DNA of 47,617 nucleotides, from assembly GCA_017881905.1 (NCBI GenBank), contig JADGQI010000015.1:1-47617 (forward strand). Direction: 5' to 3'. Within the stretch, counting starts at the first letter, position 1, and each line of letters begins with the position of its first letter. Source of the stretch: Chloroflexota bacterium. GTDB lineage: Bacteria > Chloroflexota > Limnocylindria > Limnocylindrales > CSP1-4. The position numbers and the translations under genes are program-made. The notes under the pieces are model-generated. The model searched no databases. It worked only from the letters and a program-made list of their open reading frames with translations, and was not told the origin of the DNA. Of the stretch, positions 9,273 through 24,366 are shown one piece after another.

Positions 9273-10198
9273 GCTCGACCCCGGTCACGGCGGTAGCTGA
9301 CCGGCTTCGCCTGTCGGCGTCCCCAGCCCACACGCACCAGGACCACGGCCCACATCCGGTACGGTCGCCACCCGTCGGTGACGGACGAGTACGCAGCCGC
9401 ATCGGGCGGCCCGTCCAAGCCGTAGAGCTCCGCCACCGCCTCTGGACCCATCGTGTCCGACCTCGGGACCTCGTCGACGATGCCGCAGCCCCGGAGGAGG
9501 ACGGCCTCGGCCGTGAACTCCCCGACTCCGCGCAACGTCCGTAGCTCGGCGAGGGCGGCGTCCGTGGACAGACCCCGCAGGCGCTCCGTGTCGAGACGAC
9601 CCTCGAGCGCCGCCTGTGCGAGGCCGTGGAGGCGAGTCATCTTCTCGGCGTTCAGGCCGGGGACGTCGTGGAGCTCGAGGAGCCGGTCCGGGCGCGGGAA
9701 GGTCGTGAACGACCGACCGTCGAGGTCGATGCGGTCTCCCGCCAGCTCGGCCAGCCGTGCCTTGATCCGCGCCGACTGGGTCCTCGCGATCCGCTGTCCG
9801 ATCACGAACGAGGTCGCAGCCTCGTACGCCGAGTAGAAGCACACGGGTCGGAGGTAGCGGTAGTCGCGCTGGAGTCCGCCGATGATCGGGTCTCGCTCAC
9901 CGACGGCGGTCCAGCCGGTCCCGTCGCGATCGAGCGAGACCGTCCGCAGGGCCTGGGCCAGGGCGACCCCGGGATCGCCCGCCGTCACGAGCCTGACCCG
10001 GACCGGCGCCCCATCGGCCGGCTGGCTGAACTCGGCGACCGCGCCGTGGGCCCAACCGGGCTCCTCGACCGCGAAGGCCATCACCAGGCTCGTCCCGGTC
10101 GCGGCTCCGCCACCGATCCCGGCCGGGAACCCTCCGGCGAAGTCCTGGGCGGCGGCGAGGCTGAACGGTCCGCGCGGCTCGATCTCGGAGATGTCCAT
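9269..10198 (-). CDS. HhH-GPD family DNA glycosylase (AlkA / 3-methyladenine glycosylase II-like)
   Basis: [19 protein letters not shown] (helix-hairpin-helix), followed by the D-containing loop VDEVPRSD, and WRPYRMWAV at the C-terminus. Confidence 0.75.
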
Positions 10199-10288
10199 CC
10201 GCGGATGATGGACCAGTCGGGATCGACCGGGGGTTCGATCGGCCCCTTGAGCGTCCGTGGCCGGGACCGGTCACTCGACCGCTCGGGG

Positions 10289-10294
10289 TAGGAT
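10289..10294 (+). promoter_or_regulatory. -10-like box TAGGAT, 9 nt upstream of the uORF ATG 10304
   Basis: TAGGATgcccacctgATG. Confidence 0.4.
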
Positions 10295-10303
10295 GCCCAC
10301 CTG

Positions 10304-10336
10304 ATGACCTCGACGAACCCGACGACGCTCCCTTGA
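10304..10336 (+). CDS. candidate leaderless 10-codon uORF ([10 protein letters not shown]); its TGA overlaps the mnmA TTG start
   Basis: ATG ACC TCG ACG AAC CCG ACG ACG CTC CCT TGA. TTG 10333-10335 and TGA 10334-10336 form TTGA. No SD precedes the mnmA TTG. Confidence 0.3.
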
Positions 10337-11439
10337 GCCGCATCCTGGTCGCCATGTCCGGCGGCGTCGATTCATCGGTCGCGGCCGCGCTGCTCCACGA
10401 GCAGGGTCACGAGGTGGTCGGCGTCTGGATGCGGCTGCACGACGTCGCGGACACCTATTCGGAGTTCAAGAAGAGCTGCTGCTCGCTCGACGCGGCCGAC
10501 GACGCTCGTCGGGTCGCGGGCCAGCTCGGGATCCCGTTCTTCGTGATGAACCTCGAACGTGAGTTCGACGCCGGGGTGATGCGCCCGTTCCTGGCGGCCT
10601 ACCTCGGCGGCGAGACCCCGTCGCCGTGCGTCGACTGCAACACCTACGTGAAGTTCGGGGCGCTCCTCGGGCGGGCCCGACACCTGTACGAGTGCGAGGC
10701 GGTCGCGACGGGCCACTATGCGCGACGCGACACGGATCCGGCCGGGAACGCGCGCCTCCTCAAGGCGAACGACCCCGACAAGGACCAGACGTACTTCCTG
10801 TACGGCCTTCGCCAGGACCAGCTGGCGCACGCCCGGTTCCCGCTCGGCGAGCTGACCAAGCCCGAGGTCCGCGAGGTCGCCCGATCGCTCGGGCTTGCCA
10901 CGGCCGACAAGCCCGAGAGCCAGGAGATCTGCTTCGTCCCCGGCGGGGACTACCGCGACGCGCTGCGCGAGCGCGCCGGTTGGACCCCGACGCCCGGTGC
11001 GGTGATCGACACCGACGGGACGACGCTCGGTGAGCACGGCGGTTCGGCCGGCTTCACCGTGGGACAGCGGCGCGGATTGGGCGTCGCCGTCGGGGAGCCC
11101 CGCTACGTCAGCCGGATCGACGCCGCGACGAACACGATCGTCCTGGGTCGGCGGGCGGACCTCGAGACGCGCACGGTCCCGCTTCGCGACGTGTCGTTCG
11201 TGGCCGGTGAGCCGCCCGCCGGATCCGCCCAGCCGTTCCGAGCCGAGGTCCGGATCCGCCATCGTGCCCGCCCGGTACCCGCGAATGTCCGTCCGGACGG
11301 ACCGGACACGGCCGATCGTCGGGGCGGCTGGGTCGTCGAGACCGACACGCCGGTGTGGGCCGTGTCGCCGGGCCAGGCGGCCGTGCTCTACCTGGATGAC
11401 CTCGTCCTCGGTGGTGGCAGGATCGCCGCCCGCGCGTAG
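10333..11439 (+). CDS. mnmA: tRNA-specific 2-thiouridylase MnmA
   Basis: [18 protein letters not shown] (PP-loop), [29 protein letters not shown]. An iscS-like gene lies nearby. Confidence 0.92.
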
Positions 11440-11476
11440 ATCCGGCGCCGGGTCGAGGGCCGGAACGACCCGTGCC

Positions 11477-11482
11477 TATACT
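11477..11482 (+). promoter_or_regulatory. -10-like box TATACT, 6 nt upstream of GTG 11489 (leaderless candidate)
   Basis: TATACTggccgcGTG. Confidence 0.45.
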
Positions 11483-11488
11483 GGCCGC

Positions 11489-11764
11489 GTGATCGGCCCG
11501 GCCTTCGTGCTCGCGGTGCTCGTTGGGATCTTCACGACCGCGCTGTACGCCCTGATCCGTGGCTCGGTCGGCGGGCGCCTGCCGCTCCTCCTCCTGGCGG
11601 CCATCCTCGGTGCGTGGGCGGGCGACTCGCTCGGCGAGCGGCTCGGGTTCGACATCATCCGCCTCGGTGACTTCCGGGTCCTGGCCGCGGTGCTGGGTGC
11701 TTCGCTCGGGATCGGGCTGGTGTCGGTCGTCGCCGCGCTGGGACCGCAGGACGGTCGAACGTGA
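11489..11764 (+). CDS. small integral membrane protein (91 aa, about 3 TM)
   Basis: VIGPAFVLAVLVGIFTTALYALI...LLLLAAILGAWAG...VLAAVLGASLGIGLVSVVAAL. High GC3. This is the tail of track ORF 11030..11764, whose N-terminal part is a shadow of mnmA. Confidence 0.55.
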   Translation: MIGPAFVLAVLVGIFTTALYALIRGSVGGRLPLLLLAAILGAWAGDSLGERLGFDIIRLGDFRVLAAVLGASLGIGLVSVVAALGPQDGRT

Positions 11765-11901
11765 CCCGCCGCAACGACGCCGATCCCGGCCGGCGAACGA
11801 CGCCATTCCTGCGCGGTCTCACGATCGGTGCCCTGGTCGGTGCCGCCATCGCCGGGTCGCGGATCTGGCTTCGGTTCATGCGACGGTCGGATCGGGGCTG
11901 A
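11761..11901 (+). CDS. candidate 46-aa single-TM protein (below the track size cut-off)
   Basis: GTGA overlap with the upstream small membrane gene. VTRRNDADPGRRTTPFLRGLTIGALVGAAIAGSRIWLRFMRRSDRG. High GC3. Confidence 0.35.
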   Translation: MTRRNDADPGRRTTPFLRGLTIGALVGAAIAGSRIWLRFMRRSDRG

Positions 11902-11965
11902 CCCAGGGCGTCGCGACGAGCCCCCACCTTCGGTCGGGAGGCCGGGTTTGGTACCGTTACGGCCG

Positions 11966-14758
11966 ATGCCGACCCCTGACGTCACCCTCGACCCCCGGAT
12001 CAAGGCCCTGCCCGCCGCCGAGATCCGGCGGCGCTTCATCGCGTTCTTCGACGAGCGTGGCCACGAGGTCGTCCCGTCGGCCAGCCTCGTCCCCGCGGGC
12101 GACCAGACGCTTCTGTTCACGAACTCGGGGATGGTCCAGTTCAAGGAGGTCTTCACCGGGGCCGAGACGCGAAGCTACAAGCGCGCCGTCGACTACCAGC
12201 GCTGCCTTCGGGTGGCGGGCAAGCACAACGACTTCGAAGAGGTCGGCCGGACGCCGCGCCACCACACGTTCTTCGAGATGCTCGGCAACTGGAGCTTCGG
12301 CGACTACTTCAAGCGTGACGCCATCCACTGGGCATGGACGTTCCTGACCCGGGACCTCGGTATCCCGCCCGACCGGCTGGCCGCGACGACCTACACCCAC
12401 GATCAGGTGGCCTGGGACATCTGGCAGGACGAGATCGGGCTGCCCCCGGAACGGATGGCGCGCTGGGGCGACGTCGACGCCGGCGACGACAAGAACTTCT
12501 GGCGGATGGCCGAGACGGGTCCGTGCGGACCGTGCAGCGAGATCCACTTCGACCGCGGGAGTGAGTTCTCAGAGGGTCCGCACTGCGTGCCCGACCACGA
12601 CGAGCACTGCCCGCGCTGGGTCGAGATCTGGAACCTTGTGTTCATGGAGTTCGACCAGCGACCCGACGGGCGCCACCCGCTCCCGTTCACGAGCGTCGAC
12701 ACGGGCCTCGGGCTGGAGCGTCTCGCGGCGGTCCTCCAGCAGGTCCCGACGAACTACGACACGGACCTGTTCACGCCGATCCACGCTCGGCTCGGTGAGC
12801 TGCTCGGGCACGACCCAGGGACGTTCGAGGCCGAGCGCTTCAGCTACCAGGTGATCGCGGACCATGTCCGAGCCGCGACATTCCTCGCCGCCGACGAAGT
12901 ACGACCGTCCAACGAGGGCCGGGGCTACGTCATGCGCCGCATCATCCGCCGGGCCGTCCGGCACGGGCGCCTGCTCGGCCGGACGGAGCCGTTCCTGGCC
13001 GATCTGTCCGAAACGGTCATCGCGACGATGGGGGAGCCCTATCCCATCCTGCTCGAGCGCCATGACGAGATCCAGCGGGTGATCGCGCTCGAGGAGCGCC
13101 AATTCGCCCGGACGCTGGCCGCCGGCGAGGGCCTGCTGGAGGAGGCGCTCATCCCGCTGACATCGGCCGAGCGGACCGTCGGCCGTCGTCCCGAGGATCT
13201 TCCGCCGGACGCCCCGGTGCTCGGAGGCGACGTCGCCTTCCGGCTGCACGACACGTACGGCTTCCCGATCGACCTGACCGTCGAGCTCGCCGCGGAGTAC
13301 GGCGTTACGGTCGACCGGGCCGGCTTCGACACCGCCCTCGCCGAGCAGCGCGAGCGGAGTCGGAGCGGCCGGAAGGCGGAGCTGTCGCAGCATGCGGAGC
13401 TGACCGCGCTGTACCAGGCCATCCACGCCAGGATCGGCGACACCGAGTTCAAGGGCTACGAGACTACCCGGGCCGACGACGCGACGGTCGTGGCGATCAT
13501 CCGCGACGGGCTCGAGTACCAGGAGCTCGAGGCCGTCGGGGACGTCGACTTCGCGGCGCCGGCCGGGGCCGCGGCCGAGGTCGTCCTCGATCGCACGCCG
13601 TTCTATGCCGAGGGCGGCGGCCAGATCGGGGATCGGGGCATCCTGACGCTCGGTGGCGACGTCGTGTTCGAGGTCGACGACACCCAGCGCCCGCTCGGTG
13701 GACTGATCGTCCATCGTGGCACGCTGCGCGGCGGCCTGCGGGTCGGTCAGCGGGTCGTGGCCGAGGTCGATGCCGAGCGCCGTGCGCGCACGATGCGGAA
13801 CCACACCGGGACGCACCTGCTCCATCGTGCCCTGCGCAACGTCGTCGGGTCGCGCGCCCGGCAGGCCGGGTCGCTGGTCACGCCCGACTACCTGCGCTTC
13901 GACTTCCCGTTCGAGCGCGGCCTGACCGACGACGAGCGTGCCGCGATCGAGGCGGAGGTCCGGGGCGTCATCCGGGACGACCGACCGGTCACGCCGTCGT
14001 CCATGAGCATGCGCCAGGCGATCGAGGCCGGCGCGGACGCGTTCTTCGACGAGAAGTACGGCGAGACCGTGCGGACCGTCCGGGTCGAGGGCTACAGCCA
14101 CGAGCTGTGCGGCGGCACCCATTGCCGCGCCTCGGGCCAGATCGGCGGCTTCGTGATCGTCGGCGAACGGAGCATCGGCAGCGGGATGCGCCGGATCGAG
14201 GCGCTGACCGGTGACGGTGCCGATGCGTTCCTGGCCGGCCGCCTGGCGACCCTCGAGCGGGCGACCGAGACGGCCGGGGCCAACACCGTCGACGCGCTCC
14301 CCGACCGGATCGCGGCACTCCAGGACGAGCTGCGCGAGACGAAGCGGAAGCTCAAGTCGGCGGCCACGGCCGGCGGGCCGCCCCGGCCGGCCGACCTCGC
14401 GAGCCGCGTGGTCGAGGCGGCTCCGGGGGTCCGGCTGGTCGCCTACGCCGGACCGTTCGAATCGATGGACACCCTCAAGAGCACCGCGAAGGACCTCCGC
14501 GGACTGATCCCGTCCGGCGTGCTCGCGCTCGGTCTCGACGCCGAGGAGCCGCAGGTCTTCGTCACCGTCAGCGACGACCTCGTCGGGCGGGGGATCGGGG
14601 CCGGCGACCTGGTCCGGGCCGCGGTCGGCAGCATCGACGGCAAGGGCGGCGGCCGGGCGGAGATGGCCCAGGGCAAGGGCACCCGGCGCGACGGCCTGCC
14701 CGCGGCGCTCGAGGCGATCTCGATCGCCCTGGCGGCCTCGAACGGAGCGTCCGGCTAG
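11966..14758 (+). CDS. alaS: alanine--tRNA ligase
   Basis: IRRRFIAFFDERGHEVVPSASLVP, FTNSGMVQFK, RHHTFFEMLGNWSFGDYFK, WVEIWNLVFMEF, HTGTHLLH and HELCGGTH (editing-domain Zn motifs). Start at internal ATG 11966, preceded by TACCGT 8 nt upstream. Confidence 0.95.
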   Translation: MPTPDVTLDPRIKALPAAEIRRRFIAFFDERGHEVVPSASLVPAGDQTLLFTNSGMVQFKEVFTGAETRSYKRAVDYQRCLRVAGKHNDFEEVGRTPRHHTFFEMLGNWSFGDYFKRDAIHWAWTFLTRDLGIPPDRLAATTYTHDQVAWDIWQDEIGLPPERMARWGDVDAGDDKNFWRMAETGPCGPCSEIHFDRGSEFSEGPHCVPDHDEHCPRWVEIWNLVFMEFDQRPDGRHPLPFTSVDTGLGLERLAAVLQQVPTNYDTDLFTPIHARLGELLGHDPGTFEAERFSYQVIADHVRAATFLAADEVRPSNEGRGYVMRRIIRRAVRHGRLLGRTEPFLADLSETVIATMGEPYPILLERHDEIQRVIALEERQFARTLAAGEGLLEEALIPLTSAERTVGRRPEDLPPDAPVLGGDVAFRLHDTYGFPIDLTVELAAEYGVTVDRAGFDTALAEQRERSRSGRKAELSQHAELTALYQAIHARIGDTEFKGYETTRADDATVVAIIRDGLEYQELEAVGDVDFAAPAGAAAEVVLDRTPFYAEGGGQIGDRGILTLGGDVVFEVDDTQRPLGGLIVHRGTLRGGLRVGQRVVAEVDAERRARTMRNHTGTHLLHRALRNVVGSRARQAGSLVTPDYLRFDFPFERGLTDDERAAIEAEVRGVIRDDRPVTPSSMSMRQAIEAGADAFFDEKYGETVRTVRVEGYSHELCGGTHCRASGQIGGFVIVGERSIGSGMRRIEALTGDGADAFLAGRLATLERATETAGANTVDALPDRIAALQDELRETKRKLKSAATAGGPPRPADLASRVVEAAPGVRLVAYAGPFESMDTLKSTAKDLRGLIPSGVLALGLDAEEPQVFVTVSDDLVGRGIGAGDLVRAAVGSIDGKGGGRAEMAQGKGTRRDGLPAALEAISIALAASNGASG

Positions 14759-16021
14759 ATGGCCTTCTGGCGTCGCCTCTGGCAGCGCGACGACCTGCCC
14801 GCCCTGGCGGCGTGTACGGCGCTCGACATCGGCACGGAGTTCGCAAAAGCGCTCGTGTTCGAGATCGACGACCAGGGACAGGGGACCGTCCGGGGCGTGG
14901 GCCGCAAGCGCCAGGGACTGTCGCACATGCAGTCGGGCACGGTCGCCGACATCGCGGCGGTGGTCGACAACTGCGCCGTCGCCCTCCAGGAAGCGGAGGA
15001 GATGGCCGGCTTCCGTCCGACGCAGGTGGTCATCGGGATCGCGGGTGAGCTGGTCAAGGGGTTCACGACCACGAACAGCCAGGAGCGCCGGAAGCCGGAC
15101 CAGCCGATCTCCGAGGCGGAGCTCCAGAAGCTCATCGACGCGGTCCAGCAGGAGGCGCTCCGCGAGGCCGAGCGATCGATCACCTGGGAGACCGGCCTGC
15201 CGCACGTCGACGTGCGGCTGGTCCACGCCGCGGTCACCTCGGCCAGCATCGACGGCTACGCGGTGACCAACCCGGTCGGGTTCCGCGGGCGCTACGTCAA
15301 GATCGGGATCTTCGACGCGTTCGCCCCGCTCGTCCATCTCGGCGCGCTGGAGAGCGTGGCCAGCCAGCTCGACCTCGAGCTCCTCGAGATCGTCGCCGAG
15401 CCGTATGCCGTGGCCCGGGTCCTCGGCGCGGAGCAGGTCCAGCAGGCCGGGGCGATCTTCATCGACATCGGCGGCGGGACGACCGACGTCGCGCTCGTCC
15501 GGCAGGGCGGGATCGAGGGCACCCGGATGTTCGCCCTGGGCGGCCGGGCCTTCACCAAGTCGATCGCCGATCGGCTCGACCTGCCGTTCCCGCGGGCCGA
15601 GGCGCTCAAGGTCGACTATGCGCGGGGGCTCCCGGTCGACCGCCGCGACGAGATCGAGGCGATCGTGACCGACGACGTCACGGTCTGGTCGGCGGGCGTC
15701 GAGCTGGTCATCGAGGAGCTGTCCGGCGGCGACCTCCTCCCCGGCCGGATCCACCTGTGCGGCGGGGGGTCGCGGCTGCCCGAGATCCTGGCGGCGCTCG
15801 AGGCGGAGCGGTTCTGGAAGCACCTCCCGTTCGCCCGACGGCCCGAGGTCACGATCATGTCGCCCGACCAGGTCGCCTCGATCGTCGACGCGACGAAGCT
15901 CCTGGTCGACCAGCAGGACGTGACGCCGCTCGGTCTCGCCCACCAGGCGATCGAGCTCCAGTCGACCGAGAATCCCCTCGACGCGGCACTCCGGCGCGTC
16001 CTTCGGGCGATGAAGGTCTAG
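14759..16021 (+). CDS. FtsA/PilM-like actin-fold (ASKHA) ATPase
   Basis: ALDIGTEFAKALV (phosphate 1), IFIDIGGGTTDVALV (phosphate 2), HLCGGGSRLPEI (adenosine motif), and AEALKVDY as in FtsA. Amphipathic W/R-rich ends (AFWRRLWQR; LRRVLRAMKV). The ATG directly abuts the alaS TAG. Confidence 0.8.
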   Translation: MAFWRRLWQRDDLPALAACTALDIGTEFAKALVFEIDDQGQGTVRGVGRKRQGLSHMQSGTVADIAAVVDNCAVALQEAEEMAGFRPTQVVIGIAGELVKGFTTTNSQERRKPDQPISEAELQKLIDAVQQEALREAERSITWETGLPHVDVRLVHAAVTSASIDGYAVTNPVGFRGRYVKIGIFDAFAPLVHLGALESVASQLDLELLEIVAEPYAVARVLGAEQVQQAGAIFIDIGGGTTDVALVRQGGIEGTRMFALGGRAFTKSIADRLDLPFPRAEALKVDYARGLPVDRRDEIEAIVTDDVTVWSAGVELVIEELSGGDLLPGRIHLCGGGSRLPEILAALEAERFWKHLPFARRPEVTIMSPDQVASIVDATKLLVDQQDVTPLGLAHQAIELQSTENPLDAALRRVLRAMKV

Positions 16022-16025
16022 CGCG

Positions 16026-17867
16026 ATGGCCTCGATCATCTACCTCGACGTCGACGACGAGATCACGACCGCTGCCGCGCGGATCCGCACGGCCACCGAC
16101 ACCAAGGTCGCCCTCGTCCTGCCGCCAGGCTCGCGACTGGCCACGTCGCGGATCAACTTCCGGCTGCTGTCGCGGGAGGGTCTCGAACGGAACCGCGTGC
16201 TCTCGATCGTCGCGGCCGATCCGGCCGCCCGGGCGATCGCGGCATCGGCGGGTCTGCCGGTCCATGCGACCGTCGCCGAGTTCGAGGAGGCCATCGCCCC
16301 GCCAGCTCCGCCGGCCCCGCCGGTCGAGCCCCCTGCGGCTCCGTCTGTCGATGCCGGTCCGCCGGCGAGCGGGAGCACGCCCAAGCGGTCGCGTAAGAAG
16401 GCAGCCGGAGCCGCGGCTGCCGGGGCTGCGGCGACCGGCGCCGCGGGAGTGGCGGCGACTCCTGAGACCATCGGGCTATTCGACGCGACGCCGGTGTCGA
16501 CGGCTCCCGTTTCGCCACCTTCGACCGCGTCGGTGGCGGTCCCGGTGCCACTGCCCGTCGCTCCGATCGAGGCCGCTACGGCGCCGGCCGATGTGTCGCC
16601 GCGACCGGAGATGCCGCCTGCCGAGACCCGCGCCCGTTCGAGCGCGGCGGCCGGAGCGTCCGTCCCGCCGGTCCGGTCGGGGCGCGGCCTGCCGAGCGGG
16701 CTCGTCGCCGTCGTCGGCTCGTTGGTCGTGGTCCTGGTCATCCTCGCCGTCATCGGATATGTCCTCCTCCCGTCGGCATCGGTGGTGGTGACCCCGGTCG
16801 CGGTGCCGATCGGGCCGGTGGACTTCGTCGTCCGGGCCGACCCCGACGCCACCTCGGTCGACGCCGAAGGCGGTGTCATCCCCGCGACGCGTCTGAGCCA
16901 GGACTTCACCGCCTCGGACGAGTTCAAGACCACGGGTGTGAAGGTGGTCCAGAAGAAGGCGACCGGTCAGGTCACCTTCACCAGCAAGAACACGTTCCTG
17001 CTCGTGACCGTCCCGGCGGGGACCAGCGTCCGGACGGGTTCGGGCATCGCCTTTGTCACCACGCAGTCCGTGACGATCCCGAAAGCGTCGTTCACCACGG
17101 GGCCGTCGCTGAAGGACGTTCCCATCACCGCTGTACGAGCCGGACCTGCGTCCAATGTGGATCCGGGCACCATCATCGTCCTGCCCGCCGACATCAAGGA
17201 CCTGCTGATCACCGTCACGAACCGGGATGCCACGAGCGGTGGCTCTCGCCAGGAGTCGCCAGAGGTATCGCAGAAGGACGTCGACGCCGCGATCGTTCAG
17301 CTGGGCAAGGACCTGGCCGCGCAGTTCGACACGTGGGCCGCGGCTCCGGACGACCTGCCGGACGGGTCGACCGCGTTCCCGGCCACCGGCCATCTCGGCA
17401 CGCCGGTCGCGACGCCCGATCCAGCGACTCTTGTCGGGCTGGAGCAGCCGACGTTCCAGCTGGCGGCGACCGCGACCGGCACGGTCGTCGCCGTGGACAC
17501 GAAGCTCATCGACCAGGTCGCCGCGGGAAGGATCGCGGCCAACGTCCCGTCGGAGCACGCCCTCAAGGACGGCTCGGTGACCTCGAAGCACGACGGCGGC
17601 CAGGCGGACGGCGATCTCATCGACTTCCGGGTGACGGCGAACGCGCAGGCGATCCCGGTCCTCGATGCCGCCGTCCTGCGCGAGCAGATCAAGGGGAAGT
17701 CGGTCGTGGATGCCAAGCGACTGCTCGAGCGCTACGGCTCGGTGACGATCAGCACGTGGCCCGGCTTCGTGTCGTCGATCCCGACCCTCGATGCCCGGCT
17801 CGACCTGACCGTGACCGGGCTCGACGGATCGTCGCCGGGACCGGCACCCTCGGCCAGCGGCCCGTGA
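16026..17867 (+). CDS. uncharacterised bitopic membrane protein: about 95-aa cytoplasmic N-domain, Pro/Ala-rich spacer, one TM, about 360-aa extracytoplasmic beta-rich domain
   Basis: MASIIYLDVDDEITTAAARIR... N-domain. PA-rich region about 16300-16680. TM LVAVVGSLVVVLVILAVIGYVLL. High GC3 throughout. Starts 4 nt after the FtsA-like gene and overlaps ruvX by GTGA. Confidence 0.75.
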   Translation: MASIIYLDVDDEITTAAARIRTATDTKVALVLPPGSRLATSRINFRLLSREGLERNRVLSIVAADPAARAIAASAGLPVHATVAEFEEAIAPPAPPAPPVEPPAAPSVDAGPPASGSTPKRSRKKAAGAAAAGAAATGAAGVAATPETIGLFDATPVSTAPVSPPSTASVAVPVPLPVAPIEAATAPADVSPRPEMPPAETRARSSAAAGASVPPVRSGRGLPSGLVAVVGSLVVVLVILAVIGYVLLPSASVVVTPVAVPIGPVDFVVRADPDATSVDAEGGVIPATRLSQDFTASDEFKTTGVKVVQKKATGQVTFTSKNTFLLVTVPAGTSVRTGSGIAFVTTQSVTIPKASFTTGPSLKDVPITAVRAGPASNVDPGTIIVLPADIKDLLITVTNRDATSGGSRQESPEVSQKDVDAAIVQLGKDLAAQFDTWAAAPDDLPDGSTAFPATGHLGTPVATPDPATLVGLEQPTFQLAATATGTVVAVDTKLIDQVAAGRIAANVPSEHALKDGSVTSKHDGGQADGDLIDFRVTANAQAIPVLDAAVLREQIKGKSVVDAKRLLERYGSVTISTWPGFVSSIPTLDARLDLTVTGLDGSSPGPAPSASGP

Positions 17868-18325
17868 CCCGGATCCTCGGGATCGATCTGGGCGAGAAGC
17901 GGATCGGCGTCGCGGTCGCGGACAGCGACGGGGCCGCGGTCCCGCTGGCCACGCTCCGCCGGGCCCGCGACGTCGCCGCGGACGCCGAGGCGATCGTGCG
18001 CCTCGCCACCCAGCACGATGCCGCCGAGCTCGTGGTCGGGTTGCCGCTCGAGGCGTCGGGGGAGACCGGGACCCAGGCGAACGTCACGCTAGCCTGGGTC
18101 GAGTCCGTCTCACCACTCGTGCGCCTGCCCGTCACGCTCCGCGATGAGCGTCTCTCCAGCCATCTCGCCGAACAACGCCTTGGTCCGATGAAGCGCGGCC
18201 GCTCTGGCGGCCCACCGACGGCATCCCAGCGCGACGCCTATCGGGCCAGGGTGGACCGCGAGGCCGCGGCGATCATCCTCCAGGACGAGCTCGACGCTCG
18301 CGCACGCCAGGATGCCGGTCGATGA
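17864..18325 (+). CDS. ruvX: putative pre-16S rRNA nuclease / Holliday junction resolvase-like RuvX (YqgF)
   Basis: ILGIDLGEKRIGVAVAD, LVVGLPL, LRDERLSS, ASQRDAYRARVDREAAAIILQ. GTG 17864 lies inside track ORF 17333..18325. Confidence 0.88.
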   Translation: MTRILGIDLGEKRIGVAVADSDGAAVPLATLRRARDVAADAEAIVRLATQHDAAELVVGLPLEASGETGTQANVTLAWVESVSPLVRLPVTLRDERLSSHLAEQRLGPMKRGRSGGPPTASQRDAYRARVDREAAAIILQDELDARARQDAGR

Positions 18326-19713
18326 CCGTCCGCGGCGGGGGTGGACCTCGTGACAGCCAGGGCTACGGCCTGGCGGACGTCGAGATCGACGAGGAGCACT
18401 ACGCGCGACCGCCGGATCCCGGCGAGGGATCGCGACGCGGCGGGCGATCCCCGGAGCCGCCCCGCGCCGGCGGTCGCCCGCCGCAGGCGCCGCGGGCGAG
18501 CGGAGGGTTCGGGCTCGGTGGTCTCCTCCGGTTGATCGCCTTCCTGTTCGTCCTGGCCGGGATTGTCCTGATCGTGTCGCTGACGGTCCTCCGTCCGGTC
18601 GTGGCGGGGGCGGTCGTCGGCTGGGCCGCCGACAATCCGAGCGCGCTCCGGTTGCCGTTCGTCGGGGGTCTGGTCAGGGAGGATCTCGGCACGGCCCTCA
18701 CCGATGCGCCCGCCACCGATCCGGCCCAGGTCGAGTTCACCGTGGCCGAGGGCGACACGGCGGCGGTGATCGCGGCGCGGCTGGCCGACCAGGGCTTCCT
18801 GACCGACGCCCGGTCGTTCGTGTTCATCTCGTCCGAGCGCGATCTCGCCAGCAAGCTCCAGGCGGGGACGTACATCCTGCGCCGGAACATGACCCCCGAT
18901 CAGCTGGTCACTGCGCTGCTCGTGTCCCACGACCTAGCCGTCAGCGTGCCGCTGCGCGAGGGACTGCGGCTCGAGCAGGTCACGGCGAAGCTCGAGACGC
19001 TGCCCCTGAAGATGGATGCCAGCGAGTTCTACGCCGAGGCGACGAAGCCCCCGAAGAGCCTGCTCGACGACTATCCCTGGCTGGACCTGCCGAAGGGCGC
19101 CTCGCTCGAGGGTTACCTCGCGCCCGCGACCTACAGCGTCCTGCCCGACATCACGCCGGACGCACTGATCCGCCAGATGCTCGACAAGTTCTACGCCGAT
19201 GTCGGGCCCGACCGGCTCAAGGTTCCCAAGGCGCGCGGCATGACCTTCCACGAAGTCCTCACCCTGGCGTCGCTGGTCGAGCGCGAGGCGTTCCTGGACC
19301 AGGAGCGGGCCCAGATCGCGGGCGTCTACCAGAACCGGCTCCAACCCGGGACCGAGACGGCAGGGTTCCTCGGTTCGGATCCGTCGATCTTCTACCTGAA
19401 CGACTCGCTCCAGCTCGCCAAGCTCCCGATCGACAAGTGGACGGGCTACACGTTCTGGGCACCGCCCAAGGACGGGCTGACCGACGCGACGATCCCGGCC
19501 GACCTCGCGGCCTACAACACGTACACGCACAAGGGCCTGCCCCCGGGTCCGATCGCGACACCGACCGTGGCCTCGATCGACGCGGCGCTCGACCCCGACA
19601 CGAAGGGCGGCTACCTCTACTTCGTGGCCAAGAACGACGGCTCCAACACGACCGCCTTCGCCAAGACGTACAAGGAGCACCAGGCCAACCTCAAGAAGTA
19701 CGGGTACCGCTAA
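18322..19713 (+). CDS. mltG: endolytic murein transglycosylase MltG (YceG-like)
   Basis: N-terminal TM, AGTYILRRNMTPDQLV, LTLASLVEREA, IAGVYQNRL, YNTYTHKGLPPGPIATP, YLYFVA. ATGA overlap with ruvX. Confidence 0.9.
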   Translation: MTVRGGGGPRDSQGYGLADVEIDEEHYARPPDPGEGSRRGGRSPEPPRAGGRPPQAPRASGGFGLGGLLRLIAFLFVLAGIVLIVSLTVLRPVVAGAVVGWAADNPSALRLPFVGGLVREDLGTALTDAPATDPAQVEFTVAEGDTAAVIAARLADQGFLTDARSFVFISSERDLASKLQAGTYILRRNMTPDQLVTALLVSHDLAVSVPLREGLRLEQVTAKLETLPLKMDASEFYAEATKPPKSLLDDYPWLDLPKGASLEGYLAPATYSVLPDITPDALIRQMLDKFYADVGPDRLKVPKARGMTFHEVLTLASLVEREAFLDQERAQIAGVYQNRLQPGTETAGFLGSDPSIFYLNDSLQLAKLPIDKWTGYTFWAPPKDGLTDATIPADLAAYNTYTHKGLPPGPIATPTVASIDAALDPDTKGGYLYFVAKNDGSNTTAFAKTYKEHQANLKKYGYR

Positions 19714-19773
19714 ACCGTGGGTGGTTGGCCGCAGCTCTTCGGGGAGGCCACGAGTCTGGTCGTTCTGCCGGCG

Positions 19774-19998
19774 TCAATGACCGAGAAAGGGTCGTCGCCG
19801 CAGCCGCTCGACGATCCGATCGATCAGGCTGGGTGGCTCAGGCTCCGGCTCGCGATCGTCCGCGGGCTCGGTCGGCTCGTCGTGGTAGTCGTCGCTGAGG
19901 GTGCGCATCGGGACGGGGATCAATCCGCCGCCGCCGACATCCGGCGTGTAGAACGCCCCGGCATTGCGTTCCGCCCGCCTTGGCTTGGTTCGGGCCAT
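19774..19998 (-). CDS. hypothetical 74-aa protein
   Basis: Strong SD AAGGAGAG 4-6 nt upstream of ATG 19998. MARTKPRRAERNAGAFYTPDVGGGGLIPVP...acidic PE-rich middle...LIDRIVERLRRRPFLGH. Reasonable GC3. No family recognised. Confidence 0.4.
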   Translation of the reverse strand: MARTKPRRAERNAGAFYTPDVGGGGLIPVPMRTLSDDYHDEPTEPADDREPEPEPPSLIDRIVERLRRRPFLGH

Positions 19999-20344
19999 GC
20001 CGCTCTCCTTCGTCAGCGCAACGCTGCTCCGGTCAACATGTCGCGTCAAGAGCCGGTGGTCAGCCGCGGGCACCTCGTCCTCGAGGACTCCCGCGGGCCG
20101 CTCGCGGCTCACCGGCTCCAGCGGTCCGGGTTGTCGAAAAGGCTCCGGCGCCGGCAGAAGGCTGCCTCGGCGTATGTCGCACGATCGTCGTTGACCGCGT
20201 TCCGGCTCGCCGGCGGATCGAGCGGTGTCAAGCTCTCGCCACCCATGCCGACCGGCAACTCGTACGGCTACCGGTAACGGCGATCGCCGCGCCGTGGAGG
20301 CGTATCCCGAGGCCCGGCCGCCGTCCCGGCCTGGCATGGACAAG

Positions 20345-20384
20345 AAGAGACCCCGGCCGCCAGAGGCGCGAGCCGGGGTCTCTT
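20345..20384 (-). terminator. intrinsic-terminator-like hairpin downstream of the flp gene
   Basis: 13-bp perfect stem AAGAGACCCCGGC / GCCGGGGTCTCTT with a 14-nt loop. Followed on the minus strand by a T/C-rich tail (CTTGTCC). Begins 12 nt after the flp stop. Confidence 0.6.
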
Positions 20385-20396
20385 CGTCGGCGCTGA

Positions 20397-20600
20397 CTAG
20401 ATGGAATCGCCGACGGTGCTGAGGACCGTGCTGACCTGCCCGCCGAGGAAGAGCAGGGCGACGACGGCGACGATGGCGATAAGAGCAAGGAGGAGCGCGT
20501 ACTCGGCAAGACCCTGACCACGGGCCTGGATCCGCGAGCCGAGGGTCGTGCGGAGCGACTTCATCATCTGGCTCGCGTGGATCTGAGTGCAAAGGACCAT
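20397..20600 (-). CDS. flp: Flp/Fap family type IVb pilin precursor
   Basis: Leader plus G-XXXX-EY processing motif, then a hydrophobic helix: ...IQARGQGLAEYALLLALIAIVAVVALLFLGGQV. GAGGTGA SD 5 nt upstream of ATG 20600 (internal ATGs at 20567/20564 are alternatives). Confidence 0.8.
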   Translation of the reverse strand: MVLCTQIHASQMMKSLRTTLGSRIQARGQGLAEYALLLALIAIVAVVALLFLGGQVSTVLSTVGDSI

Positions 20601-20662
20601 CTGCGATCACCTCGTTCCCGTTGGGATGGCGGTCGATCTCTTGATGAGGTTCAGCGACCGTC

Positions 20663-20674
20663 CTGGTACCAATG
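20663..20674. repeat. copy 1 of the 12-nt direct repeat CTGGTACCAATG, containing the 8-bp palindrome TGGTACCA
   Basis: Exact match to 20787-20798. Lies in the unusually AT-richer flp-pepP intergenic region. Confidence 0.7.
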
Positions 20675-20786
20675 TCCGCCCGATCGGGCTACAACACCTA
20701 TAGGACTATCGGCCCATGCAAGTACTAGGGCTGAGCGTGAAACGACGGGCACGACCCCGGAAGTGGTGCCCCACGACACCGAGCCG

Positions 20787-20798
20787 CTGGTACCAATG
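20787..20798. repeat. copy 2 of the 12-nt direct repeat CTGGTACCAATG
   Basis: Exact match to 20663-20674, with starts 124 nt apart. Confidence 0.7.
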
Positions 20799-20922
20799 GC
20801 GAGATCTCCGTCCATGCGGACCTGAACCGCGCCAGGGCCGACCCATACCGTGACGTGTCTGAGCTCCTGTACGCTTTCGACGTGAGCCACTCGGGACCGA
20901 CTGTCAAGTTGTACGGCTACCC

Positions 20923-22155
20923 GTGACCGAGTCGCGGCTCGACCGACCGCCGCGGCCGGACGACATCGCCCCGGCTCCGACGGCCGCCGACCGGACGGCC
21001 TGGGCGCGGGCGGACCGGATGGCGCGTCCGACCCGGCTGGCCCGTCTCCGCGAGCGCCTCCTCGAGGCCGACGTGGACGCCTACTTCGGGGTCCGGAGCG
21101 AGAACGTCCGGTACCTGACCGGGTTCATCCTCGGAGACGGCGAGGATCGCGTCGCGGGATCGTCCGGTTGGTTCCTCGTCGGCTCGAACGAGGTCGTCCT
21201 GTTCGCCGACAGTCGGTATGCGATCCAGGCCGCGCGCGAGGCGCCCGGCGCTCGGATCGAGCCCGTGTACGGCGACCTCGAGAAGCGCTGGCCGGAGCTG
21301 ATGGCGTCGCTCGGGGCACGTCGGGTCGCGGTCGAGGCGGATCACGTCAGTCACGGGACATGGGAAAAGCTCGCGGCGGCCGCGCCGGATGTCGAGCTCG
21401 TCCCGGCCGCCGGTTGGGTCGAAGCTCAGCGGGCGGTCAAGGAGCCGGCTGAGACGGTCCGGATCGCCGCGGCCTGCTCGGTCGCGGATCTCGCGCTCGC
21501 GGCGCTCCTTCCAGAGATCCGGGTGGGGGTCACCGAGCGAGAGCTCGCCTTCAGGCTCGAGTGGCTGATGCGGACGGGCGGGGCGGACGGGCTCGCTTTC
21601 GATGTGGCCTGCCTGGCCGGCCCCGAGGCGGCATTGCCCCACGGGTCGCCGGGCGATCGCGCCGTGACCCGCGGCCAGGTCCTGCTGTTTGACTTCGGGG
21701 CGCAGATCGACGGCTACCGGAGCGACATGACCCGGACGCTGTTCGTCGGCGAGCCGTCCGCGCGCGACCTGGCGATCTACGAGTTGGTGGCCGAGGCCCA
21801 GGCGTCGACGATCGATGGTATCGCCGCGGCGATCCGGACCGGCGCCGCGTTGCCGAGCGGACGCGCCGCCGACGGTCTGGCCCGGGCCGTTATCAACGCG
21901 GCAGGACACGGCGGACACTTCGGCCACGGGACCGGTCACGGGATCGGGTTGGCCACCCACGAGCTGCCGAGCCTCGGCCGGATGGCGACCGACGAGCCAC
22001 TCCCGAGCCCGACGGTCTTCAGCGTCGAGCCGGGGGTCTACCTCGACGGCGAGATGGGCGTCAGGATCGAGGACCTCGTCGCGATCGACGTGGCTGCCGG
22101 GCGCTGCATCCGCCTCACGAACTTCCCGCGGGAAGTCGTCGTCGTCGACGGTTGA
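20923..22155 (+). CDS. pepP: Xaa-Pro aminopeptidase (M24B family)
   Basis: FDFGAQIDGYRSDMTRT, HGTGHGIGLATHE, VFSVEPGVY, GVRIEDLV (M24 metal ligand set). Start uncertain (GTG 20923 or ATG 21019). Confidence 0.88.
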   Translation: MTESRLDRPPRPDDIAPAPTAADRTAWARADRMARPTRLARLRERLLEADVDAYFGVRSENVRYLTGFILGDGEDRVAGSSGWFLVGSNEVVLFADSRYAIQAAREAPGARIEPVYGDLEKRWPELMASLGARRVAVEADHVSHGTWEKLAAAAPDVELVPAAGWVEAQRAVKEPAETVRIAAACSVADLALAALLPEIRVGVTERELAFRLEWLMRTGGADGLAFDVACLAGPEAALPHGSPGDRAVTRGQVLLFDFGAQIDGYRSDMTRTLFVGEPSARDLAIYELVAEAQASTIDGIAAAIRTGAALPSGRAADGLARAVINAAGHGGHFGHGTGHGIGLATHELPSLGRMATDEPLPSPTVFSVEPGVYLDGEMGVRIEDLVAIDVAAGRCIRLTNFPREVVVVDG

Positions 22156-22241
22156 CCAGCCCGCTCAAGGCCCGCTACGCCCGCGGCGAGATCGAAACGG
22201 CCGAGTTCCAGGTCCGGCTGCGTGAGTTGAGCGGGGAATAG
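22152..22241 (+). CDS. candidate 29-aa SHOCT-like mini-ORF or domain remnant
   Basis: TTG overlaps the pepP TGA (TTGA). MTSPLKARYARGEIETAEFQVRLRELSGE resembles the ARGEIT-EEF SHOCT motif seen at 42600-42690. Confidence 0.25.
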   Translation: MTSPLKARYARGEIETAEFQVRLRELSGE

Positions 22242-22245
22242 CCGC

Positions 22246-22251
22246 TACAAT
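22246..22251 (+). promoter_or_regulatory. -10-like box TACAAT upstream of efp (leadered transcript)
   Basis: TACAAT lies about 90 nt upstream of the efp ATG. AGGAG SD at 22326-22330. Confidence 0.45.
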
Positions 22252-22340
22252 CCGGCGACACACCCCCGGACCCGGTCGTCGACTCGGGACCACCGTCCGC
22301 CGCTCGGCTCGCGCCGAGCCGCCCCAGGAGCCCGCCCAGC

Positions 22341-22898
22341 ATGATCTCGACCGGTGAGCTGAAGAAGGGCGTCGCGATCGAGCTCGATGGCGACCTCTGG
22401 CAGATCCTCGACTACCACCACATCAAGATGGGCCGCGGCTCGGCGCAGGTCCGGATCACTCTCCGGAACATCAAGAAGGGCCAGACGGTCGAGCGCTCGT
22501 TCCAGGCCGGGACGAAATGGCCGCGCGCCTCGATGGAGCGTCGCCCCGTTCAGTTCCTCTACCGCGACGGGGACGATTTCTACTTCATGGACACCGACAC
22601 GTACGACCAGTTCCTCCTGTCGGCCGAGCAGCTTGATACTGCGGTCCACTACCTCACCGACGGGATGACGCTGGAACGGACGAGCTACCAGGGTGAGACC
22701 ATCGGGGTCGAGCTCCCGGTGACCGTCGACCTCGTGGTCACCCAGACCGAGCCCGGCTTCGCCGGGGACACGCAGACCGGCGCCCGCAAGCCGGCGACGA
22801 CCGAGAGCGGCCTCGTCGTCACCGTGCCGATCTTCGTCGAGGAGGGCGACACGATCCGGGTCGATACCCGGACCGGCGAGTACCAGACCCGGGTCTGA
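22341..22898 (+). CDS. efp: elongation factor P
   Basis: ISTGELKKGVAIELDGDLWQILDYHHIKMGRGSAQVRITLRNIKKG...FMDTDTYDQ. Typical length of 185 aa. Confidence 0.95.
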   Translation: MISTGELKKGVAIELDGDLWQILDYHHIKMGRGSAQVRITLRNIKKGQTVERSFQAGTKWPRASMERRPVQFLYRDGDDFYFMDTDTYDQFLLSAEQLDTAVHYLTDGMTLERTSYQGETIGVELPVTVDLVVTQTEPGFAGDTQTGARKPATTESGLVVTVPIFVEEGDTIRVDTRTGEYQTRV

Positions 22899-22908
22899 GA
22901 GGGCCGGG

Positions 22909-24366
22909 TTGACCGACCGCGAACCGCCGGACTGGGCTCTCCCCGCCTGGGACGCGACGGACGCACCGCCGCCGCGGGGGCGCGATGCCGGCGGCTCGGA
23001 GCCCCGCCCGGAGCCCCGCCCTGCGCCCGTCGAGCGGGTCGCGCCGGCGGGGACCTTCGGGCTGACGATCCTCGGGGTGTCGGACGTGACGCGGGCGGTT
23101 CGCGACGCCGTCCGGAGTGACGACCGCCTGCGCGACGTGTGGGTCGAGGGCGAAGTCGGCCGGGTGACCGTCTCGAGTGCCGGCCACGCCTACTTCACGC
23201 TCAAGGACGATCGCAGCCAGCTCCAGTGCGTCTGGTTCCGGGACGATCGGATGGCCTCCCCTTACGAGCCGCAGACGGGCCTCCGGGTGGTGGCCAACGG
23301 CCGGGTCGACGTGTTCGATGCCAACGGCGTCTACCAGCTCTACGTCAGCTCGGTCCAACCGGCCGGGTTCGGCGATCTGGCCCTCCGGTTCGAGGCGCTC
23401 AAGGCCCGACTCAGCGAGGAGGGCCTGTTCGACCCGGGGCGCAAGCGACCGCTCCCGGATCGCCCGGCGGTGATCGCCGTGGTGACCAGCGAGACGGGCG
23501 CCGTCTGGCACGACATCCGGAACGTCCTCGCCCGGCGCTGGCCGTTGGCGCGCGTCGTGCTCTCGCAGTGCCAGGTCCAGGGGGCAGGGGCGCCGCCCAG
23601 CATCGTCCGGGCCCTGGCCTGGGTCGACCGCTACGCCGAGCGATGCGTCCGCAGCGGACGGCCCGGCGACGCTCCATCGGTGACCATCCTCGCCCGCGGC
23701 GGCGGGTCGCTCGAGGATCTCTGGTCGTTCAACGATGAGACCGTCGTTCGGGCCATCGTCGGGCACTCGCTCCCGGTGGTGTGCGGCGTCGGCCACGAGA
23801 CCGACGTCACGCTGGCGGACTTCGCCGCGGATCGACGCGCGCCGACGCCGTCGGCAGCCGCCGAGATCGTCGTGCCCGACCGGGTCGAACTGGCCGGGGT
23901 GCTCGTGGCCGAGACCCGACGGCTGCGCGCCGCGGCCGCCCGGACCGTCGCCGCGGCCGCGCGGGACGCCGCGGCGGAGCGCCGGGCACTCGATGCGCTG
24001 AGCCCGGTGGCCCACCTTGCGGCGAGTCGAGAACGAGCCGGGTTGCTGCTCGATCGGGCGACCCGGGCGGTCGGGGTCCGCCTCGAGGCAGGTCGGGTCG
24101 GGGCCGGGCGGTCGGCGGAGCGGCTCCGGCCCGCGGTCGCGACCCGCCTGGCGACGGCTCAAGCGACCGTCGACGCGGCGGCCGCGTCCCTGGGCGCGCT
24201 CGGTCCCGCCGCTACGCTCGAGCGCGGGTACGCCATCGTACGGCGCTCCGCCGACGGTCGTATCGTGCGCGATCCCGCAGAGGCCCCGGCGGGGGAGGGA
24301 CTGTCGATCCGGGTCGCCCGGGGCGACGTGGCCGCGACGGTCGATCGCCCCGGGGGCCATCGATGA
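22909..24366 (+). CDS. xseA: exodeoxyribonuclease VII large subunit
   Basis: VWVEGEVGRVTVSSAGHAYFTLKDDRSQLQCVWF (OB fold), IAVVTSETGAVWHDI, ILARGGGSLEDLWSFNDE, GHETDVTLADF. TTG start with GAGAGGG SD. Confidence 0.9.
   Translation: MTDREPPDWALPAWDATDAPPPRGRDAGGSEPRPEPRPAPVERVAPAGTFGLTILGVSDVTRAVRDAVRSDDRLRDVWVEGEVGRVTVSSAGHAYFTLKDDRSQLQCVWFRDDRMASPYEPQTGLRVVANGRVDVFDANGVYQLYVSSVQPAGFGDLALRFEALKARLSEEGLFDPGRKRPLPDRPAVIAVVTSETGAVWHDIRNVLARRWPLARVVLSQCQVQGAGAPPSIVRALAWVDRYAERCVRSGRPGDAPSVTILARGGGSLEDLWSFNDETVVRAIVGHSLPVVCGVGHETDVTLADFAADRRAPTPSAAAEIVVPDRVELAGVLVAETRRLRAAAARTVAAAARDAAAERRALDALSPVAHLAASRERAGLLLDRATRAVGVRLEAGRVGAGRSAERLRPAVATRLATAQATVDAAAASLGALGPAATLERGYAIVRRSADGRIVRDPAEAPAGEGLSIRVARGDVAATVDRPGGHR

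Follow-up and report, generated by a model that had tools for sequence, protein, structure and literature searches.

What do two genes for an FtsA-like ATPase and a large membrane protein do inside an array that opens with the gene of alanyl-tRNA synthetase (AlaRS)? The question is raised by contig JADGQI010000015.1 (assembly GCA_017881905.1) of a Chloroflexota bacterium from the class Limnocylindria, the whole stretch of which (47,617 nucleotides, nt) is referred to below as the window. Gene 1 (14759..16021, + strand) encodes a protein of 420 amino acids (aa), identified as an FtsA-like actin-fold ATPase from its open reading frame (ORF), a Pfam FtsA match and an AlphaFold2 (AF2) model. Gene 2 (16026..17867, + strand) encodes a bitopic membrane protein of 613 aa, supported by its ORF, more than 1200 homologues and an AF2 model. 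Considering the evidence presented below, we somewhat favour the reading in which both genes form a conserved two-gene module, a membrane actin-like ATPase combined with a bitopic adaptor acting on the wall compartment.

The co-occurrence of the two genes had been set beforehand as a test, and the neighbourhood survey bore it out: gene 2 was located directly downstream and on the same strand in 195 of the 210 unique loci that contain a relative of gene 1, and in 146 of these 195 paired loci alaS, ruvX and mltG were on that strand as well. The spacing between the two genes was -4 to +24 nt wherever the starts were unambiguous. Five of the unpaired loci have a contig end or little sequence downstream, and one more shows no gene 2. 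Four unpaired loci belong to oral Saccharibacteria, in which gene 2 is 3-6 kb off or the array around it is found inverted or broken up. Among the disrupted Saccharibacteria loci, L208 and L186 have 3-6 kb between gene 2 and the gene 1-like gene, L213 (a Nanosyncoccus) has its flanking genes on the other strand, and L212 yielded no gene 2.

Within the window, the original prediction gave the order alaS, gene 1, gene 2, ruvX, mltG with its coordinates and four junctions (an abutment, a 4-nt spacer, a GTGA and an ATGA overlap), all of which agree with the ORF listing, where the five ORFs lie on the + strand, and with direct reading of the junctions. The end of alaS (GGC-TAG) abuts the start of gene 1 (ATG-GCC) at 14759 with zero spacer, the TAG of gene 1 is followed by 4 nt (CGCG) and the ATG of gene 2 at 16026, gene 2 overlaps ruvX by GTGA at 17864, and ruvX overlaps mltG by ATGA at 18322. 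Translational coupling of gene 1 and gene 2 is probable. The codon bias of both genes is of the coding type, with the GC content of third codon positions (GC3) being 0.95 in gene 1 and 0.87 in gene 2 at a genome GC content of 71%. A promoter and terminator scan of positions 10200-21000 found no site above chance level, which is consistent with a single transcription unit.

The original prediction had placed the DNA in Actinomycetota and regarded the two genes as a lineage-specific insertion into alaS-ruvX-mltG; neither view held. All source-named close homologues come from Chloroflexota, Candidatus Limnocylindrales or 'uncultured Chloroflexia' metagenome-assembled genomes (MAGs), and, the window being of Chloroflexota (Limnocylindria) origin, the argument built on the use of SepF in Actinomycetota is inapplicable. 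The same slot is likewise filled in some Patescibacteria and Halanaerobiales. As was revealed by the genome scans, all Limnocylindria-type loci have the order mnmA-alaS-gene1-gene2-ruvX-mltG(-pepP), as do Dormibacterota and one MAG labelled as Thermomicrobiales. This order is identical in Saccharibacteria and Berkelbacteria, and a contig of Howlettbacteria shows mnmA-alaS-gene1-gene2 and then ends. The pair alone occurs in loci of Gracilibacteria, Peribacteria, Parcubacteria, Moranbacteria and Dojkabacteria, those of Gracilibacteria and Peribacteria having no alaS, ruvX or mltG nearby. In one Peribacteria locus (L145, 5654-11386) a gene of alanine racemase lies upstream of the pair and that of a PKD-domain protein downstream. 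Among cultured Halobacteroidaceae, the pair was found in three Natroniella species, Orenia metallireducens, Halonatronum saccharophilum and Halanaerobacter jeridensis, where the array reads alaS-ireB-(719-aa membrane protein)-gene1-gene2-ruvX-DUF1292-DUF4258-mltG. The extra polytopic protein of 719 aa, encoded just upstream of gene 1 (L200, Natroniella, 4788-6947; L220-L226; 44-88% identity), weakly resembles alkaline phosphatases (Metalloenzyme) in its N-terminal region and may act as a third component in Halobacteroidaceae. Since the identical slot is occupied in three phyla, descent from a common ancestor with many subsequent losses is the simplest explanation, and independent insertion is less likely.

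The families are large. The gene 2 motif was found in at least 489 species-level genomes, the pattern search for gene 1 gave at least 600 matches, and the search with gene 1 against representatives returned 372 clusters (50% identity) at E-values (E) below 1e-30. The best 150 of the gene 1 representatives all belonged to the gene 1 family over their full length, down to ~30% identity, with no canonical FtsA among them. In the Limnocylindria-type loci no neighbouring gene is as conserved as gene 1, the product of which has a median identity of 84% to the window protein, followed by those of mnmA (74%), alaS (71%), pepP (69%), ruvX (65%), mltG (52%) and gene 2 (41%); in two MAGs (L001, L007) gene 1 is 100% identical. 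Conservation of an FtsA-like protein above an aminoacyl-tRNA synthetase is unusual and is typical of wholly constrained surfaces, such as those of polymers or hubs. Several unusual domain combinations were encountered among the matches to gene 1. P0386 (808 aa) combines a TIR domain with a gene 1-like domain, and in P0380 (969 aa) such a domain follows a 560-aa N-terminus that received no assignment. Two apparent fusions, P0444 (the C-terminal half of gene 1 with Baseplate_J) and P0434 (the C-terminus of AlaRS with the N-terminus of gene 1), are probably merge or frameshift artefacts of abutting genes and were thus not used as evidence of interaction.

Sequence and structure comparisons agreed with the original assignment of the gene 1 product to FtsA/PilM-like proteins with three ASKHA motifs. 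The Pfam FtsA family (PF14450) matched it at E 2e-15, and weaker matches to MreB, PilM and EutA fell on the common nucleotide-binding core; its best solved relative by sequence was FtsA (7q6f, E 2e-14, residues 20-291). The AF2 model, calculated from an alignment of 36 family members, had a predicted local distance difference test score (pLDDT) of 81 and a predicted template modelling score (pTM) of 0.79. The best Foldseek match of this model in the Protein Data Bank (PDB) was the FtsA-FtsN complex 7q6i; with FtsA from Vibrio and Escherichia coli it aligned over ~400 columns at template modelling (TM) scores of 0.71-0.75 normalised by query and 0.77-0.85 normalised by target, followed, in query-normalised values, by FtsA from Staphylococcus aureus and Thermotoga maritima (0.62-0.69), by PilM as the second-best match (0.55-0.64), and by EutJ, DnaK and MreB (at most 0.5). 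As the model superposes best on FtsA, the domain arrangement is predicted to be of the FtsA type, that is, the modelled protein is an actin/ASKHA fold in which an inserted subdomain 1C (SHS2) replaces 1B. No match to Pfam SHS2_FTSA was found in gene 1 at the sequence level, and the region of subdomain 2B, which in FtsA carries the FtsZ-peptide site, was left unaligned by sequence methods.

All three nucleotide-binding motifs are intact, and the protein is therefore predicted to be ATP-competent. In the alignment of the family from Limnocylindria and Saccharibacteria, D23, G25 and T26 of the phosphate-1 motif LDIGTEF (residues 22-28; 14822..14842, + strand) are invariant, as are the phosphate-2 motif DIGGGTTD (residues 236-243; 15464..15487, + strand), which also served as the search pattern, and the adenosine motif CGGGS (residues 334-338; 15758..15772, + strand). 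The claim that both termini of the protein are amphipathic stood for the C-terminal one, residues 406-420 (...LDAALRRVLRAMKV; 15974..16018, + strand), where the hydrophobic moment reaches 0.81, the maximum of the protein, and AF2 places a low-confidence terminal helix at residues 406-417. An ending of the L..R.LR.MKV type recurs in Saccharibacteria and in most sampled representatives, down to ~30% identity. The N-terminal MAFWRRLWQR is only moderately amphipathic (~0.5), a short basic and aromatic N-terminus being a feature of the family. The C-terminal helix is thus a candidate membrane-targeting sequence, by which gene 1 is probably held on the inner face of the membrane.

Is this protein, then, the canonical FtsA of the organism? 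The FtsA equivalog model TIGR01174, with the cut-off of 175.85 bits, gave 107.4 bits for gene 1, 117.8 bits for its orthologue from Saccharibacteria and 127.4 bits for that from Natroniella, the match being restricted in all three proteins to model positions ~2-260 of 371; as a control, the FtsA encoded next to ftsZ in L228 scored 499 bits over its full length. No ftsZ or other dcw genes adjoined gene 1 in the ~210 loci. The PilM model TIGR01175 (cut-off 133 bits) and Pfam PilM_2 (cut-off 27 bits) scored 29.9 and 21.5 bits with gene 1, both failing; the Natroniella orthologue passed PilM_2 weakly (31.7 bits) and failed TIGR01175 (43.7 bits). Membership in MreB found no support either, as TIGR00904 gave 28 bits at a cut-off of 366, PF06723 gave 34.7 bits over only 75 residues of the common nucleotide-binding core, and the Foldseek TM-score with MreB was ~0.47-0.49.

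The gene 2 product was modelled from 50 homologues with a mean pLDDT of 82, and the layout proposed for it originally, namely an N-terminal domain, a Pro/Ala-rich spacer, one transmembrane helix and a beta-rich ectodomain, agrees with the model. The cytoplasmic N-domain (residues 1-92; 16026..16301, + strand) is a small alpha/beta fold of beta-alpha-beta type with pLDDT of ~96. It is followed by a disordered Pro/Ala-rich linker of variable length (residues 93-222; 16302..16691, + strand; pLDDT below 50, 30% identity) and by a hydrophobic transmembrane helix (residues 223-247; 16692..16766, + strand; placed by AF2 at 224-247), the basic residues before which put the N-terminus in the cytoplasm. 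The extracytoplasmic beta-rich multidomain region, baseplate-J/gp47-like (residues 248-600; 16767..17825, + strand), has pLDDT above 90 and contains the Baseplate_J core beta-barrel (Pfam PF04865; residues 311-413; 16956..17264, + strand).

A resemblance to baseplate-J/gp47 proteins, which the original prediction had mentioned as faint, proved to be substantial: the ectodomain holds a true Baseplate_J core. The family PF04865 matched at E 5e-12 (46.1 bits, cut-off 21.1), and the only sequence match of gene 2 in the PDB was gp47 of phage Mu (9ki1). Foldseek superposed ~340 columns of the model on wedge proteins (E 2e-8 to 6e-4), among them those of cyanophage A-1(L), phi812, phiCD508 and Mu; the matches of the ectodomain to myophage baseplates include 8kea, 9euf, 9gb2 and 9ki1 (E 2e-8 to 7e-5). 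In tblastn searches, gene 2 displayed ~40% identity over ~105 aa to baseplate J proteins of haloarchaeal myoviruses. Of the orthologues, that from Natroniella matched Baseplate_J at 33 bits, and that from Saccharibacteria, having no Pfam match, nevertheless aligned over its full length.

The N-domain, taken alone from three phyla, matched no family in a Pfam scan to E 10, and the whole-model Foldseek search gave it only weak Rossmann-like matches. For the corresponding protein of Southlakia epibionticum, SEML1_0655, the ECOD classification assigns residues 6-105 to the SpoIIAA-like (STAS) fold (Wang et al., 2023, Table S2, PMC10633639) and the ectodomain to beta-barrel, G3P-like and gp6 domain III folds (Wang et al., 2023, PMC10633639). 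Within Limnocylindria the mean identity of gene 2 is 77% in the N-domain, 54% in the ectodomain and 30% in the linker, and the N-domain motif IYLDVDDEIT is common to gene 2 of Limnocylindria and Patescibacteria. The cytoplasmic domain is therefore the best conserved part of the protein, as would be expected if it faced gene 1.

The arrangement in Southlakia epibionticum ML1, the complete genome of which is available, extends this picture. There, mnmA (SEML1_0658) and alaS (SEML1_0657) (Wang et al., 2023, Cell 186:4803, PMC10633639, Tables S1/S2) are followed by SEML1_0656 (1284 bp), annotated as 'pilus assembly protein PilM', K03590 and, in ECOD, FtsA-like (PMC10633639), then by SEML1_0655 (1671 bp), a 'baseplate J/gp47 family protein', ruvX (SEML1_0654) and mltG (SEML1_0653) (PMC10633639). 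This order is that of the window and of the Saccharibacteria loci scanned here. The same genome encodes FtsA (SEML1_0174, with the SHS2 domain PF02491) adjoining FtsZ (SEML1_0175), both essential, as well as the PilM of the pilus (SEML1_0104) with its PilN neighbour, and it lacks MreB (PMC10633639). The coexistence of the pair with a canonical FtsA-FtsZ and a pilus PilM, together with TIGR01174 scores that fall short of the cut-off in three phyla, bears out the earlier notion that gene 1 is other than canonical FtsA and places it in a family of paralogues that is the third within the FtsA/PilM branch and is separate from canonical FtsA at least in Saccharibacteria. In the published transposon sequencing (Tn-seq) data, normalised reads for the gene 2 orthologue changed from 373 to 34 and 24 (calls NE/ES/ES) and those for the gene 1 orthologue from 2427 to 660 and 221 (calls NE/NE/GD); mltG was dispensable and ruvX essential (PMC10633639).

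Wang et al. flagged both families as 'core, Patescibacteria-enriched' families of Meheust et al. (2019) (PMC10633639), and the pair is discussed neither by Wang et al. (2023) nor by Meheust et al. (2019). Searches of the literature, including those combining baseplate J with FtsA or with the Candidate Phyla Radiation (CPR) and those with the Southlakia locus tags, retrieved no function, name or analysis of the pair. The proteins themselves are already in databases under generic names and in two supplementary tables.

How could such a module work? We propose that gene 1 assembles on the membrane via its C-terminal amphipathic helix, membrane binding and polymerisation both being surmised, and that the small alpha/beta domain of gene 2 probably docks on it; the module would then be likely to work on the principle known from MreB-RodZ, FtsA-FtsN or PilM-PilN. 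The flexible linker and the single transmembrane helix would connect this docking domain to a rigid baseplate-J-barrel scaffold outside, and thus the assembly or nucleotide state of gene 1 could be relayed through gene 2 to the wall compartment, where the most plausible target is the growth or remodelling of peptidoglycan. The neighbours that weakly suggest an envelope role are mltG, in Firmicutes ireB, and in Peribacteria the gene of alanine racemase. As for the functional connection with MltG that had been read from the operon, it comes down to synteny, given that the pair occurs without mltG in Gracilibacteria and Peribacteria and that Southlakia can dispense with mltG, whereas its gene 2 orthologue received an essential call.

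Several considerations weigh against this interpretation. The contact between gene 1 and gene 2 is one that we infer, and the link to the wall is guilt by association, the operon also holding the translation and rRNA genes alaS and ruvX. The orthology of SEML1_0656 and SEML1_0655 to gene 1 and gene 2 was deduced from gene order, length and annotation. Polarity on the essential ruvX downstream could account for the essential call of the gene 2 orthologue, and the gene 1 orthologue tolerates insertions with a late growth defect only, which is odd if gene 2 strictly needs gene 1. Moreover, as mltG is dispensable and the gene 2 orthologue is not, the two are not simply members of one pathway. Finally, gene 1 could double as the divisome FtsA in the organism of the window, since the coexistence of FtsA and gene 1 rests on Southlakia; literature searches for canonical ftsA or ftsZ in Limnocylindria found nothing for the class.

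This last point leads to the explanation that gene 1 is an ordinary division FtsA moved out of the dcw cluster, with gene 2 being a lineage-specific late divisome accessory of FtsN/FtsQ type. It would account for FtsA being the best match of gene 1 in both structure and sequence, for the FtsA-like C-terminal amphipathic helix, for the label FtsA/K03590 given to family members by JGI/KEGG and for the lack of a dcw cluster in the window. We consider it improbable, because the equivalog cut-off is missed in three phyla with the C-terminal third of the model unmatched, SHS2_FTSA does not match gene 1, unlike the FtsA of Southlakia, ftsZ never adjoins gene 1 in ~210 loci, and in Southlakia the orthologous pair coexists with an essential FtsA-FtsZ, the gene 1 orthologue being non-essential there. 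Still less probable is that the pair belongs to a type IV pilus, competence or secretion-like machine, with gene 1 acting as PilM and gene 2 as an alignment protein of PilN/PilO type. Neither in the window nor in any locus examined were pilB, pilC, pilN, pilO or pilin genes found beside the pair; TIGR01175 gave 30-44 bits against the cut-off of 133, the only domain recognised in gene 2 is Baseplate_J and not PilN or PilO, and the bona fide PilM of Southlakia is a different protein, with PilN as its neighbour. These data outweigh the second-best structural match of gene 1 to PilM, its weak PilM_2 and TIGR01175 matches, the automatic annotation of the Southlakia orthologue as PilM, and the enrichment of Patescibacteria in type IV pili (PMC6744442).

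The homology of gene 2 to viral proteins, evident from Pfam, Foldseek and tblastn, could also mean that it is a remnant of a prophage or tailocin, namely a baseplate wedge protein with a functionally meaningless adjacency to gene 1. This is hardly credible: the homology is confined to the core barrel, the cytoplasmic domain and the membrane anchor are unlike phage proteins, housekeeping genes and no other phage, tail or baseplate genes surround gene 2 in every locus, and its composition is native (GC 0.71-0.73, GC3 0.87). A remnant is likewise at odds with the position and pairing, which are kept across three phyla and hundreds of genomes, and with the Tn-seq call of the Southlakia orthologue as essential, subject to possible ruvX polarity. 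Of a different kind is the view that the module is real but serves something other than the wall, either as a membrane-anchored chaperone or ATPase system or as a surface or adhesion structure, where the FtsA-like ATPase energises or regulates an exposed baseplate-like protein. Chaperones and reactivases (EutJ, DnaK, EutA) are among the wider ASKHA relatives of gene 1, baseplate J proteins of phages are assembly hubs and receptor-binding platforms, the pair is followed by a gene for a PKD-domain surface protein in Peribacteria, and enrichment in Patescibacteria, for which both families are flagged, is also a trait of many host-interaction genes. We nevertheless regard this view as rather unlikely, as the pair is also present in Limnocylindria, which are free-living, and in Halanaerobiales, neither being epibionts, the housekeeping context of the operon is conserved, and FtsA-type domains with a membrane helix favour a membrane cytoskeletal role over that of a chaperone.

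The module of a membrane actin-like ATPase and a wall-directed adaptor may be set in a wider frame, which we offer as a doubtful but conceivable extension. The pair would then be a third ancient membrane actin-like system of Terrabacteria beside FtsA and MreB, in which polymer-forming gene 1 is wired to the wall via a domesticated baseplate scaffold. Such a system would go back to a common ancestor of Chloroflexota, Patescibacteria and Bacillota, would have been kept in all major lineages of Patescibacteria, where MreB is often absent, and might there be the chief organiser of wall growth outside the septum, of budding or of the architecture of the cell surface.

In division, elongation and pilus assembly the organising role falls to actin-like proteins and their bitopic partners, and a further family of this kind, if true, would fill a gap in the envelope biology of lineages that hold a large share of bacterial diversity. 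What makes the pair stand out is the conservation of gene 1 above AlaRS within Limnocylindria, the occurrence of both genes across all of the lineages of Patescibacteria sampled, and the reuse of a phage baseplate fold outside the membrane by the partner protein. The proposal is testable, as orthologues are present in the genetically tractable Southlakia epibionticum, with Tn-seq on record, and in cultured Natroniella, Orenia, Halonatronum and Halanaerobacter. In addition, the order alaS-gene1-gene2-ruvX-mltG may serve as a rare genomic character for deep relationships within Terrabacteria.

As for the flanking genes of the window, the unit begins with alaS (11828..14758, + strand; Pfam tRNA-synt_2c E 7e-184, tRNA_SAD, DHHA1) and continues after gene 2 with ruvX, coding for a YqgF nuclease (17864..18325, + strand; Pfam RuvX E 7e-28, TIGR00250), and mltG, coding for a YceG endolytic transglycosylase (18322..19713, + strand; Pfam YceG E 7e-69; TIGR00247 155 bits, cut-off 103). 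In the ORF listing, alaS is extended at its N-terminus by ~46-60 aa: its Pfam domain begins at residue 65 and homologues align from residues 33-47, the real start probably being the ATG near 11966. The other genes of the window are of housekeeping nature (aspS, typA, iscS, mnmA, pepP, efp, xseAB, dxs, tlyA, nadK, recN, xerD, scpAB, rluB, cmk, der); no dcw or ftsZ genes were found in its 47.6 kb, and an Rfam scan of positions 10000-23000 gave zero matches. Between mnmA and alaS, the C-terminal part (~11480-11764) of the ORF 11030-11764 is a strongly hydrophobic small ORF that could be a small membrane protein gene. Within the housekeeping stretch recN...scpAB, the gene of a XerD-like tyrosine recombinase (30479-31402) precedes that of a protein with bPH_2 and SHOCT domains (31419-32168). 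Between mltG and pepP, which follow each other directly in several relatives, there is a variable spacer of ~1.2 kb (19714-20922) with a lower GC content of ~0.67. The closest MAGs have only its first ~400 nt in common, and positions 20106-20900 match almost nothing among the fetched relatives apart from a 74-nt stretch in L007. L119 and L125 contain, at other sites, a piece of ~125 nt from this spacer (~19793-19918), which could therefore represent a small repeat or mobile element. Pfam gave no match for the minus-strand ORF 19774-20610, and the spacer is also free of Rfam matches.

Comparison with known systems shows where the pair stands. Gene 1 is like canonical FtsA, its best structural match, in the ASKHA motifs, in the inserted domain that takes the place of actin 1B and in the C-terminal amphipathic helix. 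It differs in its identity of only ~20%, in missing the equivalog cut-off with the last third of the model unmatched, in having no ftsZ neighbour, in coexisting with a true FtsA in Southlakia, where it is non-essential, and in being conserved far above its own neighbours and paired with gene 2. With PilM-PilN the pair shares an FtsA-like ATPase gene directly upstream of that of a bitopic protein, whose cytoplasmic N-terminus is expected to bind the ATPase. PilN, however, binds by a short peptide, whereas gene 2 is proposed to dock by a folded domain of ~90 aa; its ectodomain is baseplate-J-like and not ferredoxin-like as in PilN/PilO, pilus genes are missing nearby, and the TIGR01175 score is far below the cut-off. 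The Baseplate J/gp47/T4 gp6 family (PF04865) has in common with gene 2 the core barrel and further domains superposing on wedge proteins, but gene 2 belongs to the cell, is anchored in the membrane, carries a cytoplasmic domain and lies in a housekeeping operon without other tail or baseplate genes. In FtsA-FtsN, as is proposed for the pair, the cytoplasmic tail of a bitopic protein reads the oligomeric state of an actin-like protein and acts on peptidoglycan synthesis outside. FtsN is a proteobacterial protein with a short tail and a SPOR domain, and gene 2 has neither such a tail nor such a domain. RodZ consists of a folded cytoplasmic N-domain, a disordered linker, one transmembrane helix and an extracytoplasmic beta-rich domain, its partner being the membrane-binding actin-like MreB. 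No relationship of sequence or fold with MreB-RodZ was found: gene 1 is FtsA-like, and the N-domain of gene 2 is alpha/beta and free of Pfam matches, while RodZ binds MreB by an N-terminal helix-turn-helix and ends in a DUF4115 domain; the likeness is one of architecture only, and in this respect RodZ is the closest analogue of gene 2.

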